64,000 bases of DNA from Bacteroidota bacterium (GTDB taxonomy: Bacteria; Bacteroidota; Bacteroidia; Chitinophagales; Chitinophagaceae), in assembly GCA_947456625.1 (NCBI GenBank), contig CANGQJ010000006.1, positions 42,259 through 106,258 of the forward strand, in the 5' to 3' direction. Made by a program: the position numbers and the translations under genes. The notes beneath the pieces are model-generated. The model worked only from the letters and a program-made list of their open reading frames with translations, ran no database searches and was not told the DNA's origin. Positions 35,979 through 41,882 of the stretch are shown here, one piece after another. The first letter of the stretch is position 1. Every line of letters starts with the position of its first letter.

Positions 35979-36001
35979 TTAATAATTATTTAAATAATCA
36001 C

Positions 36002-36037
36002 AATCCCTATCTAATTAAAATAGATAGGGATTTTTTT
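36002..36037 (+). terminator. Intrinsic terminator
   Basis: AATCCCTATCTA-ATTAAAA-TAGATAGGGATT followed by a T run. Confidence 0.8.
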
Positions 36038-36046
36038 AAATTAGCA

Positions 36047-38089
36047 ATGCAAAAATTAAATAGCTCTAATATGCGTTTATCATTAACTACCGTTTTCTTA
36101 ATTAGTATTATGTCGTTCGCTGCTGCACAAAATAAAGTAAAGCAAGTAAAACTAGGTACTAAAAATGCACCCATTTTAAAAGTAAATGGGCTTGAGTTTA
36201 AGGATTTAAATAAAAATGGAAAACTTGATAAGTATGAGGATTGGCGTTTGCCAAATTCCTCACGCGCTTTGGATTTAGTTTCAAAAATGTCGGTTGAGGA
36301 CAAAGTTGGTTTTATGCTAATTAGTTCCAGTAGAATGAAAAACGATTGGTCATTTGAAGGTGCTAAGACACGTGAAACTATTACCAGTGATTTTAACGAA
36401 GAGGATTTGGTCCAAAAAATGAATATGTTTACAAGGCAACCGCTACCCATTGAAATGATGATGGCAGCGGGTACCACTAAAGCAATTCAACAATATAAAT
36501 TAAGACACTTTATTTTAAGAGCCAATGTAGATGCACGAACTACTGCACAGTGGGCTAATAAATTACAAGCATTATGTGAAAGTGATCCACTGGGTATACC
36601 AAGTGTAATAGCATCTAATCCAAGAAATCATATTACAAAAGATGCTTCCATTGGTTTAAGTGTGGGCACTACTACTTTTTCAACATGGCCATCTGAATTA
36701 GGATTGTCTGCAATGCATGATTTAAAATTAACAAGAACATTTGCCGATATCGCAAGACAAGAGTGGGCCGCAGTTGGACTTCGTAAAGGATATATGTATA
36801 TGGCCGATTTATCTACAGAGCCAAGATGGCAAAGAATAGAAGGTACATTTGGAGAAGATCCAGAGTGGGTTGGTAAAATGATTTATGAAGTTATTGTTGG
36901 TTTTCAAGGAACTAAATTAAACAGCACCTCTGTAGCGCTCACTACCAAACATTTTCCTGGTGGTGGAGCGGGTGAGGGTGGACAAGATCCACATTTCCCT
37001 TGGGGCAAGCGTGAAGTGTTTTCTTCTGGAAATTTAGACAACAATATTATTCCTTTTAAATATGCAATTAAGGCAGGTACATCTTCTATCATGCCATATT
37101 ATTCTTATCCAGTAGGCACTAAATATCCAGAAATTGCTTACGCTTATAACAAACCAGTATTGCAAGGCTTACTAAGAAAAGAGTTGGGCTTTAATGGCAT
37201 TATTAATTCCGATACAGGCCCAATTGAAATGATGCCCTGGGGAGCCGAAAATTTAACCATTGAGCAGCGATATATTAAAGCTATTGATGCAGGTGTAAAT
37301 ATTTTTTCAGGTAGCGCCGATCCTTCCAAACTTTTAGAAATTGTAAAAGCAGGAAAAGTAGATATGAAATTAATTGATACTTCGGTATATAAATTATTAT
37401 TGGAATTTTATCAATTAGGATTATTTGAAAATCCATATGTAGACGAGGAAGCAGCTGTAAAAATTGTAAACAATAAAGCATTCCAAGAAAAAGCAAATTT
37501 AGCTTTAAGAAAATCTATTGTGTTATTAAGAAACGAAAACAAAACACTTCCATTAACTAAAAAAACAACTAAAATTTATTTAGAGTCTTATATGCAAAAA
37601 AAGGGACAATCCGCAAGTAATGTATATAAGCCTAAAGGAGGCGAAGCCGTTGAGTTTGTTAGCAATCCCGAGGCTGCAGATATGATTGTGTTATGGATTA
37701 CACCAGGAGCTAAATCCTTATTCGAATCCGATGGCGGTCCCCTTTCGGTGATGCTTTCGAAAAGTGGCGTGGATGTTAAATATGTTAATGAGTTAACACA
37801 AAAAAAACCTACCGTGCTTGTAGTGAATTATACTAACCCTTGGGTAATTAGTGAAATTTACAATGCGCAAACTATGCCAAATATAAAAGCGGTGATTGCT
37901 ACTTTTGGAACTTCTACCGATGCATTGATTGATGTGATTACAGGTAAATTTAATCCAACTGGCAAAATGCCTTTTACAACACCAAGTTCAGAAAAGGAAG
38001 TGAGTGAAAATAAAGCCGATATCCCAGGTATTAAAGAATCAAAAACTTATCCATTATTTAAAGTAAACGAAGGGTTAAGCTATCACTAA
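36047..38089 (+). CDS. GH3 beta-glucosidase/xylosidase
   Basis: EPRWQRIEGTFGED, KHFPG, MPYY, NSD nucleophile, PTGKMP; N-terminal DLNKNGKLD EF-hand-like motif. Confidence 0.92.
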   Translation: MQKLNSSNMRLSLTTVFLISIMSFAAAQNKVKQVKLGTKNAPILKVNGLEFKDLNKNGKLDKYEDWRLPNSSRALDLVSKMSVEDKVGFMLISSSRMKNDWSFEGAKTRETITSDFNEEDLVQKMNMFTRQPLPIEMMMAAGTTKAIQQYKLRHFILRANVDARTTAQWANKLQALCESDPLGIPSVIASNPRNHITKDASIGLSVGTTTFSTWPSELGLSAMHDLKLTRTFADIARQEWAAVGLRKGYMYMADLSTEPRWQRIEGTFGEDPEWVGKMIYEVIVGFQGTKLNSTSVALTTKHFPGGGAGEGGQDPHFPWGKREVFSSGNLDNNIIPFKYAIKAGTSSIMPYYSYPVGTKYPEIAYAYNKPVLQGLLRKELGFNGIINSDTGPIEMMPWGAENLTIEQRYIKAIDAGVNIFSGSADPSKLLEIVKAGKVDMKLIDTSVYKLLLEFYQLGLFENPYVDEEAAVKIVNNKAFQEKANLALRKSIVLLRNENKTLPLTKKTTKIYLESYMQKKGQSASNVYKPKGGEAVEFVSNPEAADMIVLWITPGAKSLFESDGGPLSVMLSKSGVDVKYVNELTQKKPTVLVVNYTNPWVISEIYNAQTMPNIKAVIATFGTSTDALIDVITGKFNPTGKMPFTTPSSEKEVSENKADIPGIKESKTYPLFKVNEGLSYH

Positions 38090-38131
38090 TATTTTAACTT
38101 ACTAGATATTAGCTAGTGAATGCTATAAATT

Positions 38132-38167
38132 AAAAAAGCCGCTCCAAATATTGGAACGGCTTTTTTT
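38132..38167. terminator. Bidirectional intrinsic terminator between GH3 and the tRNA-like RNA
   Basis: AAAAAAGCCGcTCCAA-ATA-TTGGAaCGGCTTTTTTT, with A and T tracts on either side. Confidence 0.85.
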
Positions 38168-38170
38168 AGT

Positions 38171-38337
38171 TGCTGTAGGGGGAGGGGTCGAACCTCCAAG
38201 GGGCAGTTAGCCAAAACACAAAGTTGAGTGGTCTACCCTGGTCGCCTATTGCTAGGCGGCTCTATGTTTCGTTTATCCCGTGATCCCCACCTTCGAGACG
38301 AGAAGGCATGTCTGCCAAAAATTTCATCACCCCACAG
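38171..38337 (-). ncRNA. Atypical tRNA-like RNA: tRNA-Asp(GUC) identity on a class II scaffold with a 92-nt variable region
   Basis: Hand-folded on the minus strand: acceptor TGTGGGG/CCCTACA + G73; U8-G9; D stem ATG/CAT with GG in the loop; anticodon arm CCTTC-TCGTCTC-GAAGG; variable region closed by GGGG/CCCC; T arm GGAGG-TTCGACC-CCTCC. Confidence 0.8.
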
Positions 38338-38392
38338 TATTAAGAACTTATCATTTGAGCGTTTACAGTGTGTTTTCCCTCATTTGATATAT

Positions 38393-38424
38393 CAAAACTA
38401 ATGTAATGAGGTATATGTTGCAAA
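38393..38424 (-). promoter_or_regulatory. Bacteroidota primary-sigma promoter driving the tRNA-like RNA
   Basis: Minus strand TTTG (38424-38421), 20-nt spacer, TAGTTTTG (38400-38393): exact -33/-7 consensus. Confidence 0.8.
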
Positions 38425-38495
38425 TATTTTAAGTAATTATTTTAAAATATAGAATATTATTAATAAATTAGCTAATTATTTAAAAATAGTTAATA

Positions 38496-38984
38496 ATGGA
38501 ACAAAAATCAGCACCAAAATTAAACATTGACAAAAGCCTTGATAAGCTGGATTTGCAAATTATTCAAGCCATGATGCAGGATGCCGAGGTTTCCTATGCA
38601 GACCTAGGTAAACAATTTTTTGTTTCTGGTGGTACCATTCATGTACGTATTAAAAAGTTAGAAGAATTGGGCATCGTACAAGGTAAAAGGCTTGCTGTGG
38701 ACTTAAAAGTACTAGGGTATGATATCATTGCCTTTATAGGAATTTATTTAGAGAAGAGCTCCATGTATGATACCGTTGCACAAGCTTTAAAAGCAATTCC
38801 TCAGGTAGTGCGCGTGAACTATACAACTGGCAATTATAGCATGTTTGTGGAGATTGTTTGTAAAGACATTCAACAGCTTAGGTTTGTGTTGCACGACGAG
38901 TTGCAAAAAATTAAAGGCATTGAGCGGACCGAAACCTTAATTTCCTTAGAGGAAAGTTTTTCGCGTAATGTACGTATCGTATAA
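38496..38984 (+). CDS. asnC: Lrp/AsnC family transcriptional regulator
   Basis: LDKLDLQII..VSGGTIHVRIKKL HTH, YTTGNYS and IERTETLISL, closely AsnC-like. Confidence 0.9.
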   Translation: MEQKSAPKLNIDKSLDKLDLQIIQAMMQDAEVSYADLGKQFFVSGGTIHVRIKKLEELGIVQGKRLAVDLKVLGYDIIAFIGIYLEKSSMYDTVAQALKAIPQVVRVNYTTGNYSMFVEIVCKDIQQLRFVLHDELQKIKGIERTETLISLEESFSRNVRIV

Positions 38985-39018
38985 ATAATCGTTTGTAAAT
39001 TACATCAAACCTAGTTTA

Positions 39019-39624
39019 ATGAAACCTTGTAATTATAATGATGCCAGAAGGGGCTTTCTAAAAAAATCGGCTGCTATAGCTGCTTTATATTTAACCCCAT
39101 CTTTGTTAGTTAAAGCATTTGCAATTGATGCAGTGGTGCCAACCCCCATTGCTAAAGAAAAATTAACCATTACTATTAATGGAAAATTATTGAATCTTGA
39201 AATAGATGCAAGAACAACTATTTTAAATTTATTAAGAGAGGAGTTAAATTTCACAGGCACTAAAAAAGGTTGTGAAATGGGACAATGTGGTGCATGTACA
39301 ATACATATTAATGGGAAACGCACAAAGTCTTGTATGCAATTAGCTATAAGCAATCAAAATAATAGCATCACTACCATTGAGGGTTTAACAAATAGTGAAG
39401 TATTGCATCCTATGCAGGCAGCTTTTTTAAAACACGATGCTTTTCAGTGTGGCTATTGTACTTCTGGTCAAATTATGTCGGCGGTGGCTTGTGTTAGAGA
39501 AGGTCAAGCAAAATCAAGAGATAGTATTAAAAATTTTATGGACACCAATATTTGCAGATGTGGTGCGTATCAAAATATTGTAGATGCTATTGAGGAAGTA
39601 GCAAAAGCAGGAACTAAAATTTAA
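39019..39624 (+). CDS. (2Fe-2S)-binding small subunit of a xanthine-oxidase-family enzyme (PaoA/YagT-like), Tat signal
   Basis: RRGFLK; GCEMGQCGAC, QCGYC and CRC motifs. Confidence 0.92.
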   Translation: MKPCNYNDARRGFLKKSAAIAALYLTPSLLVKAFAIDAVVPTPIAKEKLTITINGKLLNLEIDARTTILNLLREELNFTGTKKGCEMGQCGACTIHINGKRTKSCMQLAISNQNNSITTIEGLTNSEVLHPMQAAFLKHDAFQCGYCTSGQIMSAVACVREGQAKSRDSIKNFMDTNICRCGAYQNIVDAIEEVAKAGTKI

Positions 39625-39644
39625 TCATCACCAATTTATATACC

Positions 39645-41882
39645 ATGAATCAAAAAAATACAAATACGATATTTTGGGAAGATGAAAGAGTAGACGGCGC
39701 AGATAAAGTAACAGGTAAAGCAAAATATACTGCCGAACACAACTTACCAAATTTAGCTTATGCTGTTTTTGTAACAAGTAATATTGCAAAAGGCACAATT
39801 AAAAATATTGACACTAGCAAAGCACTAGCTATGACTGGCGTATTGGATGTCATTTATTATGCCAACTGTCCTGCAGTTCCAGGATACAATCCCAATGCGG
39901 CAGAGCGTCCAAAAAATGTTTCTGAGTGGAGAGGTCATAAAGTTTTATATGACAATAAGGTTCGCTTTTTTGGACAACCTATTGCGCTTGTTGTTGCTGA
40001 TAGTTTTGAAAATGCAAACGCAGCTATACGATTTGTAAAACCTGAATATGAAACCGAAGCTTTTGAAACTAATTTTGATAAAGCACGTTTAAACGTCGCT
40101 AATTTAAAGCCACCAGTGACTTATAAAAGAGGCCCTGAAACGGTTACAAATGTTGCAGCTACGGTTGAGGCAGAATATAATATTCCAATAGAAGTGCACA
40201 ATCCAATGGAGTTACAAGCAACTATTGCTTATTGGGAAGCTGAGGATAAATTATTATTGTACGATAAAACTCAGGGTCCAAAAAGTACACAGGGACTTAT
40301 GGCAAAAACATTTGGACTTCCAGATAAAAATGTAAGAGTTATTGCAGAAAATGTGGGAGGTGCATTTGGTAGTTCATTAAGATCATGGTCCAATGTACCT
40401 GCTGCTTGTATTGCAGCAAAAAAATTAAATAGGCCTGTTAAATTGGTACTTACAAGACCGCAAATGTTTACTTTAATTGGATACCGTCCTCAGTCATGGC
40501 AGAAAGTAAATATTGCCGCAAATGCAGCTGGAGATTTTCTATCCATTAATCATGAAGCCATAAGTAATACTTCACGCTACGAAGATTTTAGAGAAGGTAT
40601 TGTAGATGTTTCAAAATTTTTATACGCAGCAGAAAGTGTAAATACAAAATACAGCATTTTGCCTTTAGACTTAAGCACCCCTATATGGATGCGCGGTCCT
40701 GGCGAAGCAACAGGATGTTTTGCATTAGAATCGGCAATAGACGAATTATCTTATAAATTAAAAATGGATCCTATAGCGTTAAGAATTAAAAACTTTACTA
40801 CCATTAATCCTGAAAATAAATTACCCTTTTCCGACAATAATTTAAAAGCATGTTATGAATATGGCATGACAAAAATTGGTTGGAAAAACAGACCTACTGT
40901 GCCTGGCACACTTAAAGAAAATGGATTGCTTATTGGGTATGGAATGGCAGTGGGTGTATTTGGAGCAGGTAAAGGAACTGCAAGTGTTCGTGCTATTTTA
41001 TCAAGTGATGGAAAATTAGTTTTGGAATGTGCTGTAAGTGATATGGGTCCTGGTACATCCACTTCCATGTCTAAAATTGCTGCAGAAGCAATGCAAATGC
41101 CAATCACTAAAATTAAATTTAAATTAGGTGACTCTGATTTACCTCCTGGCCCTTCACAAGGAGGCTCGGGTACTACATCTACTGTAGGATCTGCAGTGGA
41201 CTTGGCTTGTAAAACTTTACAACAAAAGTTAAAGGATTTAGCAATTCAATTTGCACCCCCATTTAGTGGGGCAACACCTGATACATTAGAAGTAAAAAAT
41301 GAAATAGTATCCTTAAAAACCGATGCCACTAAAAAAATTGAAATTGTTGCTTTATTAAAATTGGCAAATCAAGATAAAATTGATCTAACCATTAACTCTT
41401 CTGGTAAAACACCAGAGCAATTAAAGTTTACAAGTAATTCTTTTTCTGCTCATTTTGTAAAATTGGCAGTGAATCCTAAGGATGGAAAAATAAAAGTTTT
41501 ACAAGTAGTAACTACTGGTGATGCAGGAAAAATTATTAGTCCTAAAACGGCACATAGTCAAATGTTAGGTGGTGTAGTGGGTGGTCTTGGTATGGCATTA
41601 TCGGAAAAATTGGAAATAGATCATACCACAGGACAAATAATGAATGCAAGTTTTGGCGCCTACCATGTTCCTTTGCATTCACAAATTCCAAACATAGATG
41701 CATGGTTTGTAAATAAGCCAGACATGAACGTTAATGATATTGGTGCAAAAGGAATAGGAGAGATAGCACTTATAGGGTTTGCTGGAGCTATTGCCAATGC
41801 AGTGTATAATGCAACCGGTAAGCGCGTTAGAGACCTGCCAATAACACCCGAGAAACTTGGTTTTAAGTCTGTTAAAGCATAA
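39645..41882 (+). CDS. Molybdopterin-binding large subunit of a xanthine-oxidase-family enzyme (PaoC/YagR-like)
   Basis: KVTGKAKY, HNPME, VGGAFG, MRGPG, DMGPG, GGS and AKGIGE (catalytic Glu). Confidence 0.92.
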   Translation: MNQKNTNTIFWEDERVDGADKVTGKAKYTAEHNLPNLAYAVFVTSNIAKGTIKNIDTSKALAMTGVLDVIYYANCPAVPGYNPNAAERPKNVSEWRGHKVLYDNKVRFFGQPIALVVADSFENANAAIRFVKPEYETEAFETNFDKARLNVANLKPPVTYKRGPETVTNVAATVEAEYNIPIEVHNPMELQATIAYWEAEDKLLLYDKTQGPKSTQGLMAKTFGLPDKNVRVIAENVGGAFGSSLRSWSNVPAACIAAKKLNRPVKLVLTRPQMFTLIGYRPQSWQKVNIAANAAGDFLSINHEAISNTSRYEDFREGIVDVSKFLYAAESVNTKYSILPLDLSTPIWMRGPGEATGCFALESAIDELSYKLKMDPIALRIKNFTTINPENKLPFSDNNLKACYEYGMTKIGWKNRPTVPGTLKENGLLIGYGMAVGVFGAGKGTASVRAILSSDGKLVLECAVSDMGPGTSTSMSKIAAEAMQMPITKIKFKLGDSDLPPGPSQGGSGTTSTVGSAVDLACKTLQQKLKDLAIQFAPPFSGATPDTLEVKNEIVSLKTDATKKIEIVALLKLANQDKIDLTINSSGKTPEQLKFTSNSFSAHFVKLAVNPKDGKIKVLQVVTTGDAGKIISPKTAHSQMLGGVVGGLGMALSEKLEIDHTTGQIMNASFGAYHVPLHSQIPNIDAWFVNKPDMNVNDIGAKGIGEIALIGFAGAIANAVYNATGKRVRDLPITPEKLGFKSVKA

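Follow-up and report, generated by a model that had tools for sequence, protein, structure and literature searches.

The locus described here lies in a window of 64,000 nucleotides, which is the whole stretch of DNA that was analyzed, from a Bacteroidota bacterium. The minus strand encodes a cloverleaf RNA of 164 nt at positions 38336-38173, with a variable region of 92 nt by inspection of the sequence. The limits of the predicted mature tRNA-like RNA, U1 to G73, are based on the sequence, the alignment of homologues and contig coverage. Divergently oriented on the plus strand (38496-38984) is a gene for an AsnC-like regulator, an Lrp/AsnC protein of 162 aa. Its best NCBIfam match is AsnC, at 159.5 bits (below the cut-off of 227), and its best PDB match is E. 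coli AsnC (2cg4, E 1.5e-34), which it also matches in the YTTG and TETLI segments. Downstream of asnC, positions 39019-41882 encode an Fe-S subunit similar to that of xanthine dehydrogenase (PaoA/YagT-like), along with a large open reading frame resembling a molybdopterin subunit, neither of which is a conserved neighbor.

The acceptor stem of the RNA (38336-38330 with 38180-38174) has 7 bp, including G2-C71 and a G4-U69 wobble. In its 5' strand (38330-38336), U1 (38336) pairs with A72 (38174), the base pair that is the determinant for GatCAB. The 3' strand and the discriminator G73 occupy 38173-38180, and C74 (38172) is likewise invariant. CCA is not encoded, since G73 is followed by CAA, and would be added post-transcriptionally. 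The D arm (38308-38329) is of the Leu type, with a 3-bp stem (38327-38325 with 38310-38308), A15, G18G19 and extra D-loop nucleotides. The anticodon arm (38290-38306) has the loop UCGUCUC, with GUC at 38299-38297 followed by U37 and C38, and the T arm (38181-38197) contains A51-U63, a pair found in 36 of 37 diverse copies. Between these two arms lies the variable domain (38198-38289), which consists of a 4-bp base helix, a 4-nt bulge, a 3-bp helix, an internal loop of RAYAAA/CUAA that is conserved in the family alignment, a 12-bp helix and a three-way junction. The junction bears a variable hairpin and the conserved GGUNGACCAC hairpin (38239-38227). Short forms of the RNA without the distal part of this domain also exist. 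The fold of the single sequence gave a z of -2.3.

Upstream of the RNA gene, a TTTG element (38424-38421) and TAGTTTTG (38400-38393) are separated by a spacer of 20 nt. Together (38393-38424, minus strand) they form a putative -33/-7 promoter, which would leave a leader of about 50 nt before U1. A TAnnTTTG motif occurs within 130 nt upstream of 27 of 51 homologous copies, compared with 180 of 2080 control windows. Downstream, an intrinsic terminator (38132-38167, minus strand), a hairpin that has A- and U-tracts, was recognized by inspection, although it is missing from the list of a simple terminator scan; it is probably common to the RNA and a convergent glycosidase gene. The initial annotation had proposed a full minus-strand cloverleaf without encoded CCA, flanked by a promoter and a terminator, and the sequence bears out all of these features.

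A DNA search detected the RNA in 107 of the 151 genomes sampled from the family. This count includes two corrections: G123 was dropped because its match was a weak blastn match of 36 nt without a cloverleaf, and G059 was added because its copy is cut by a contig end. At a covariance-model score above 80 bits, the RNA was also found in 28 of 150 class genomes and in 15 of 150 phylum genomes. One of the latter (G266, loci L092 and L230) carries the sole copy found outside the class. This copy still faces asnC, and the RNA and asnC were likely acquired as a pair by horizontal transfer. Of the matches below 60 bits, those that were read are tRNA-Leu, and a broader model (R2) gave just tRNA-Leu or tRNA-Tyr among the 30 matches read from 15 genomes that possess gatB without the RNA. 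GenBank phages and PLSDB plasmids gave no match.

The family alignment, which comprises 44 of 52 extracted copies, shows both-sided changes in 20 of 45 named pairs, including some in each helix of the variable domain. Moreover, 96% of cells pair, compared with 44-55% when the partners are slid, and none of 500 shuffles reaches the observed pairing, a test that is inflated by the relatedness of the copies. This covariation supports the cloverleaf with a giant variable arm, which ranges from 39 to 150 nt in the family. The RNA is real, widely conserved, uncatalogued and tRNA-shaped, with a large folded extra arm. The readings as a decayed tRNA pseudogene and as a mobile repeat were rejected. Tandem pairs of the RNA, often a short-arm and a long-arm copy behind one asnC, occur at L011, L019, L022, L061, L068, L121 and L128.

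Catalogues of known RNAs gave no counterpart. ARAGORN called neither a tRNA nor a tmRNA in the window, and at 36000-41000 no Rfam 15 family reached its gathering threshold, with chance-level matches near the terminator only. When Rfam 15 was applied to eight homologous loci, it matched solely the adjoining normal tRNAs. What the initial annotation had named as fatal to its reading, namely a known family, a lack of homologues, covariation or transcript, or non-conservation of GUC and G73, was not observed.

The gene also appears to be transcribed. In three studies, metatranscriptome contigs of relatives are confined to about 38164-38361, and the summed word depth on the RNA peaks at 1e4-5e5, compared with less than 13 on the adjoining genes. 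The runs share just 4-10% of their words with the window, so they represent relatives and no habitat was inferred from them; one run, probably of DNA, covers both flanks of the gene. These data hint that the RNA is an abundant discrete transcript, as contigs cannot give its level, strand or ends. CCA addition was not seen in the loose ends of the contigs, and no change at the anticodon is listed among them.

The conserved positions include those of aspartate identity. The identity set of bacterial tRNA-Asp is reported to be G34, U35, C36, C38, G73 and G2-C71 (PMC9976931), and the RNA has all of these. In 37 diverse copies there is no exception to U1-A72, G2-C71, A15, U48, U35, C36, C38, G73 and C74, and just one copy departs from G34, which upholds the aspartate identity assigned by the initial annotation. 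The elements it listed were correct, but it overlooked that G1-C72 is replaced by the invariant U1-A72, which is also found in all 44 family copies. G1-C72 is described as strictly conserved in bacterial tRNA-Asp and as helping to position tRNA-Asp in E. coli AspRS (PMC9976931). In contrast, U1-A72 is reported to be the single determinant for bacterial GatCAB, for which the anticodon is irrelevant, while an extra U20a is an antideterminant with an effect of about 10- to 100-fold (PMC1635274, PMC2811023). The RNA has U1-A72 (44 of 44 and 37 of 37 copies, the exception being 9 of 47 phage copies), and gatB is present in the same genome. However, it also has a nucleotide at 20a, the D loop reading C20-A20a-G21 in Leu numbering.

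Other features separate the RNA from decoding tRNAs. While tRNA-Asp has a class I fold with a short variable loop, U33 and a purine at position 37, the RNA has a variable region of 39-150 nt, and its position 37 is never A in the diverse copies (U in 31, G in 4, C in 2). Position 33 is free, with U in 29 of 37. The non-decoding role proposed by the initial annotation holds up, but its C33 is not a conserved trait. Neither is its C-1:G73 pair, as position -1 is C in 31, U in 12 and A in 1 of the 44 family copies. Two relatives depart at the anticodon itself. G277 (L094:1501-1612 and 1723-1833) has two tandem copies with the Glu anticodon UUC that retain U1-A72, G73 and C38; GatCAB also amidates Glu. 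G381 (L136:1501-1578) has a 78-nt relative, outside the 37-copy alignment, that shares the acceptor type but reads AUC. Its variable region is very short, and asnC is not found close to it.

The RNA was also compared with tRNAs and tRNA-like RNAs that possess long arms or altered functions. It shares A15-U48, G18G19, A20a and the long arm with tRNA-Leu, but G73 is found in 37 of 37 copies, and the discriminator of tRNA-Leu is reported as A73 (PMC9976931). In tRNA-Ser, G73 goes together with a long arm in the SerRS orientation. The RNA has G73 and a long arm, and the base of the arm has two unpaired nucleotides, a Leu-like trait. The allo-tRNAs and tRNA-Sec were rejected because they require an 8/4 or 9/3 (8/5) branch (PMC5389517, PMC7609411), and the RNA combines a 7-bp acceptor stem with a 5-bp T stem. 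It was not identified as tmRNA either, as it possesses U3-A70 and a full anticodon arm and gave no ARAGORN tmRNA call and no Rfam match. A tmRNA has a G3-U70 Ala acceptor, no anticodon arm and a tag open reading frame.

Copies are also carried by phages. A pattern scan of IMG/VR, in which the anticodon was fixed by the pattern, returned 63 loci, of which 47 parse as full cloverleafs and 16 do not. G73 is present in all 47 parsed copies and U1-A72 in 38, the other 9 being short A1-U72 forms. None of the 47 has asnC beside it, and 16 are in loci with at least two tRNA calls. The forms at L171, L177, L185, L203, L208, L209, L215, L216 and L222 are class II tRNA-like RNAs of 94-95 nt with GUC, G73 and A1-U72, most of which ARAGORN calls tRNA-Asp. 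At L163, L165, L170, L183 and similar loci, a hairpin whose loop repeats GUCUC is inserted in the D loop, possibly as a second anticodon mimic or a nuclease decoy.

The gene that faces the RNA is usually asnC, a neighbor that the initial annotation had overlooked; E. coli has asnA in the position taken here by the RNA. This arrangement was observed in 27 of 30 close loci, the remaining three ending near a contig edge, in 16 of 18 divergent family loci and in 24 of 32 covariance-model loci from the class and phylum. No other constant neighbor, and no recurrent transferase gene, was found at these loci. E. coli AsnC is reported to activate asnA, and asparagine damps the activation (PMC8707732). 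In four genomes (G048, G090, G020 and G051; L046-L049), asnC is retained without the RNA or gatB. AsnB or AsnA is encoded at another place in three of these genomes, so that AsnC may have switched its target.

The idea of a link to gatB came first from U1-A72, and co-occurrence was then counted; because the genomes are kin, these counts are not independent. In the family, gatB is present in all 107 RNA-positive genomes, and the RNA is present in none of the 40 gatB-negative genomes. Four genomes possess gatB without the RNA (G012, G080, G083 and G092), three of which are assemblies of 490-700 contigs. Of the gatB-negative genomes, 36 of 40 gave no asnC match at E<=1e-30. In the class, canonical gatB is present in 28 of 28 RNA-positive genomes, and the RNA is present in none of the 43 genomes without it. 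The 107 canonical cases were obtained from 113 GatB_N matches by removing three weak 660-aa matches and three 1110-aa fusions; the unpublished genome G374 enters the class denominators only (150, 107 and 94). The presence of GlnRS is informative here because GatCAB is then not needed for Gln. Among class genomes with GlnRS, 12 of 13 with canonical GatB have the RNA, compared with 0 of 39 without. Where gatB is present and GlnRS absent, so that GatCAB is needed for Gln, the RNA was found in 16 of 94 genomes and not detected in 78. The contrast in RNA presence recurs within the families f1, f2, f5 and f48 and within the genus g271.

In the genomes searched, the RNA does not co-occur with true asparagine synthetase AsnB. 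This enzyme is present in 3 of the 151 family genomes and in 19 of the 150 class genomes, none of which has the RNA (0 of 107 and 0 of 28 RNA-positive genomes, respectively). AsnB was scored by NF006949, as TIGR01536 matched 127 of 151 genomes, mostly through paralogues of 600-680 aa; the one such paralogue tested scored best to an XrtA-type amidotransferase. In the family sample, the only one searched for AsnA, this enzyme was found in 7 of 151 genomes, including 2 of the 107 RNA-positive ones. The genome of the window (90% complete) possesses GatA, GatB, GatC, AsnRS, GlnRS, a single AspRS and also a normal tRNA-Asp. Searches of this genome, and of a complete one from its genus, gave neither an AsnA nor an AsnB-like gene. 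In 33 of the 40 gatB-negative family genomes, neither AsnA nor true AsnB was found; these may be asparagine auxotrophs or possess an unrecognized route, possibly the long AsnB paralogues.

The RNA-positive genomes are scattered over a tree of 48 GatB proteins, a pattern consistent with an old origin followed by repeated loss. In the alignment of class GatB proteins, no column tells the 25 from RNA-positive genomes apart from the 21 from RNA-negative ones. Similarly, class genomes with and without the RNA share the AspRS signature, and those without it also have AsnRS. Because it is the same regardless of the RNA, the signature does not show that these AspRSs discriminate. One genome, G399, encodes a 1106-aa GatB-AspRS fusion (L225:2438-5755) beside a GatA-like open reading frame, with GlnRS and no RNA. 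The AspRS part has the His that is typical of non-discriminating enzymes. G327 and G365 encode GatB proteins of about 1110 aa, of the same type by length, again with GlnRS and no RNA, so that three such genomes are among the 39 mentioned above. The G399 fusion may be a one-protein transamidosome and an alternative solution to the same task.

Based on the current evidence, the RNA is likely a non-decoding carrier. AspRS would load it with aspartate and GatCAB would amidate the load, so that the RNA would provide asparagine under the control of AsnC. The probability of this reading is put at roughly 60%. Maturation would be mediated by RNase P and the CCA-adding enzyme. The single AspRS of the cell would then charge the RNA through G34-U35-C36, C38, G73 and G2-C71, and GatCAB would recognize U1-A72 and amidate Asp to Asn. 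The giant arm, the non-purine at position 37, the free position 33 and A51-U63 are predicted to keep the RNA off EF-Tu and the ribosome, so that Asn would not be inserted at Asp codons. Instead, Asn would be freed or passed on by some factor, after which AsnRS would load tRNA-Asn. At low Asn, AsnC would activate the RNA promoter, as E. coli AsnC does asnA. The initial annotation had suggested an Asp sensor, decoy or donor. The Asp identity and non-decoding character on which this was based still stand, but the invariant U1-A72, an asnC in divergent orientation and a strict requirement for gatB favor a substrate for amidation over a sensor or decoy.

Several points count against this carrier. 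No candidate enzyme for the release step was found, and Asn would probably be freed too slowly by spontaneous hydrolysis. The Leu-type D loop with its extra nucleotides should hinder GatCAB, and the absence of G1-C72 would count against charging by AspRS. In addition, the 33 gatB-negative family genomes without AsnA or true AsnB, and the 78 class genomes that have gatB but neither GlnRS nor a detected RNA, manage otherwise, by auxotrophy, AsnB paralogues or a relaxed AspRS. The lack of an RNA-specific GatB column and the shared AspRS signature weigh against the carrier too; the AspRSs of Bdellovibrio and Legionella are reported to be non-discriminating (PMC4206432). The UUC copies of G277, the AUC form of G381 and the 9 of 47 phage copies with A1-U72 are also exceptions to it. 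In a stronger form of the carrier reading, the RNA gene would take the place of an asparagine synthetase, and the giant arm would be the working part. The GGUNGACCAC hairpin and the RAYAAA/CUAA loop would dock tRNA-Asn or AsnRS and transfer Asn or catalyze its release, and phages would use the RNA to seize the host Asn supply. This extension is quite doubtful.

An unlikely alternative is that the RNA serves as a scaffold or cofactor, binding one AspRS subunit and GatCAB so that the complex mis-aspartylates and amidates ordinary tRNA-Asn. The RNA itself need not turn over, no release step is needed, and the dependence on gatB and the link to asnC are explained equally well. However, the acceptor end, the discriminator and C74 are conserved as strictly as would be expected of a substrate, and a discriminating AspRS would presumably still need to accept U36 on the second tRNA. 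The accumulation of RNA-library contigs on the RNA would agree with a scaffold, as would the description of transamidosomes as multi-tRNA complexes (PMC9976931, PMC2811023).

It is more doubtful that the AsnC-controlled RNA is a regulator, sensor or decoy. In this case it would titrate AspRS or GatCAB, or report Asp charging, and the chemistry on tRNA-Asn would be left to a relaxed AspRS. Were GatCAB able to work in the absence of the RNA, GatB alone should be frequent in GlnRS-positive genomes, and it was seen in 1 of 13; moreover, in a lineage that lacks the RNA, GatB became fused to an extra AspRS. Nevertheless, the AspRS signature is the same with or without the RNA, asnC is absent beside all 47 parsed phage copies, and lone non-discriminating AspRSs are reported in bacteria with AsnRS, GlnRS and GatCAB (PMC4206432).

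Very unlikely is a donor of Asp or Asn to a non-ribosomal transferase acting on the cell wall, a lipid or a protein N-terminus. The non-decoding features and A51-U63 would suit such a role, for which the non-proteinogenic tRNA-Gly of Staphylococcus is a precedent (PMC9976931), but asnC, and no transferase gene, recurs as a neighbor, and the exclusion of true AsnB would be left unexplained. Finally, it is highly improbable that the RNA is a tRNA-Asp of unusual form that decodes, or a class II tRNA charged with serine and recoding Asp codons. A cloverleaf of the 7/5 type, G73 and a long arm are reported SerRS features (PMC7609411), and phage copies lie in tRNA arrays at 16 of 47 loci. However, A does not occur at position 37, position 33 varies, the variable arm can be as long as 150 nt, and the genome already has a normal tRNA-Asp. 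The anticodon, which SerRS does not read, is conserved in the RNA, as is C38, and the gatB link would be unexplained.

If the carrier reading is true, the RNA would be the first case of a non-decoding carrier RNA dedicated to the synthesis of an amino acid, and would provide a third asparagine route beside AsnA/AsnB and the non-discriminating AspRS. Bacteroidetes have been described that possess AsnRS, GlnRS, GatCAB and one AspRS, with no Asn synthetase found and a relaxed AspRS assumed (PMC4206432), and the carrier would answer why some of them keep GatCAB. Even with another mechanism, the RNA is an apparently abundant, class-wide, phage-borne structured RNA missed by standard tRNA and RNA-family finders. 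No description of it was found in the open literature, subscription journals not being covered.

Among known systems, tRNA-dependent Asn synthesis by a non-discriminating AspRS, tRNA-Asn and GatCAB shares the same predicted chemistry, the enzyme and U1-A72 with G73, and is reported to be used where AsnA/AsnB is missing (PMC1635274, PMC2811023, PMC4206432). In contrast, the carrier here would be a separate, non-decoding RNA with an Asp anticodon, so that no relaxed synthetase would be needed and the product could not go straight to the ribosome. Class II tRNA-Leu is likely the ancestor of the RNA, judging from the shared 3-bp D stem, A15-U48 and long arm; tRNA-Leu genes are the next-best covariance matches, below 60 bits. 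The RNA differs from it by G73 instead of A73, the GUC anticodon, U1-A72 and a branched arm of up to 150 nt. In E. coli, asnC and asnA lie divergently, much as asnC and the RNA do. An AsnC homologue stands beside its presumed target, as in the E. coli asnC-asnA pair (PMC8707732), but here the neighbor is an RNA gene and not an enzyme gene. The allo-tRNAs and tRNA-Sec share the long arm, and GUC is a common allo-tRNA anticodon (PMC5389517, PMC7609411); however, they are of the 8/4 or 9/3 type with diverse anticodons, and the RNA is of the 7/5 type with a fixed Asp anticodon. Staphylococcus aureus likewise has a dedicated amino-acid carrier outside translation with altered T-stem pairs, its non-proteinogenic tRNA-Gly, but this is described as normal in size and as donating Gly to peptidoglycan, with no chemistry on the tRNA (PMC9976931).
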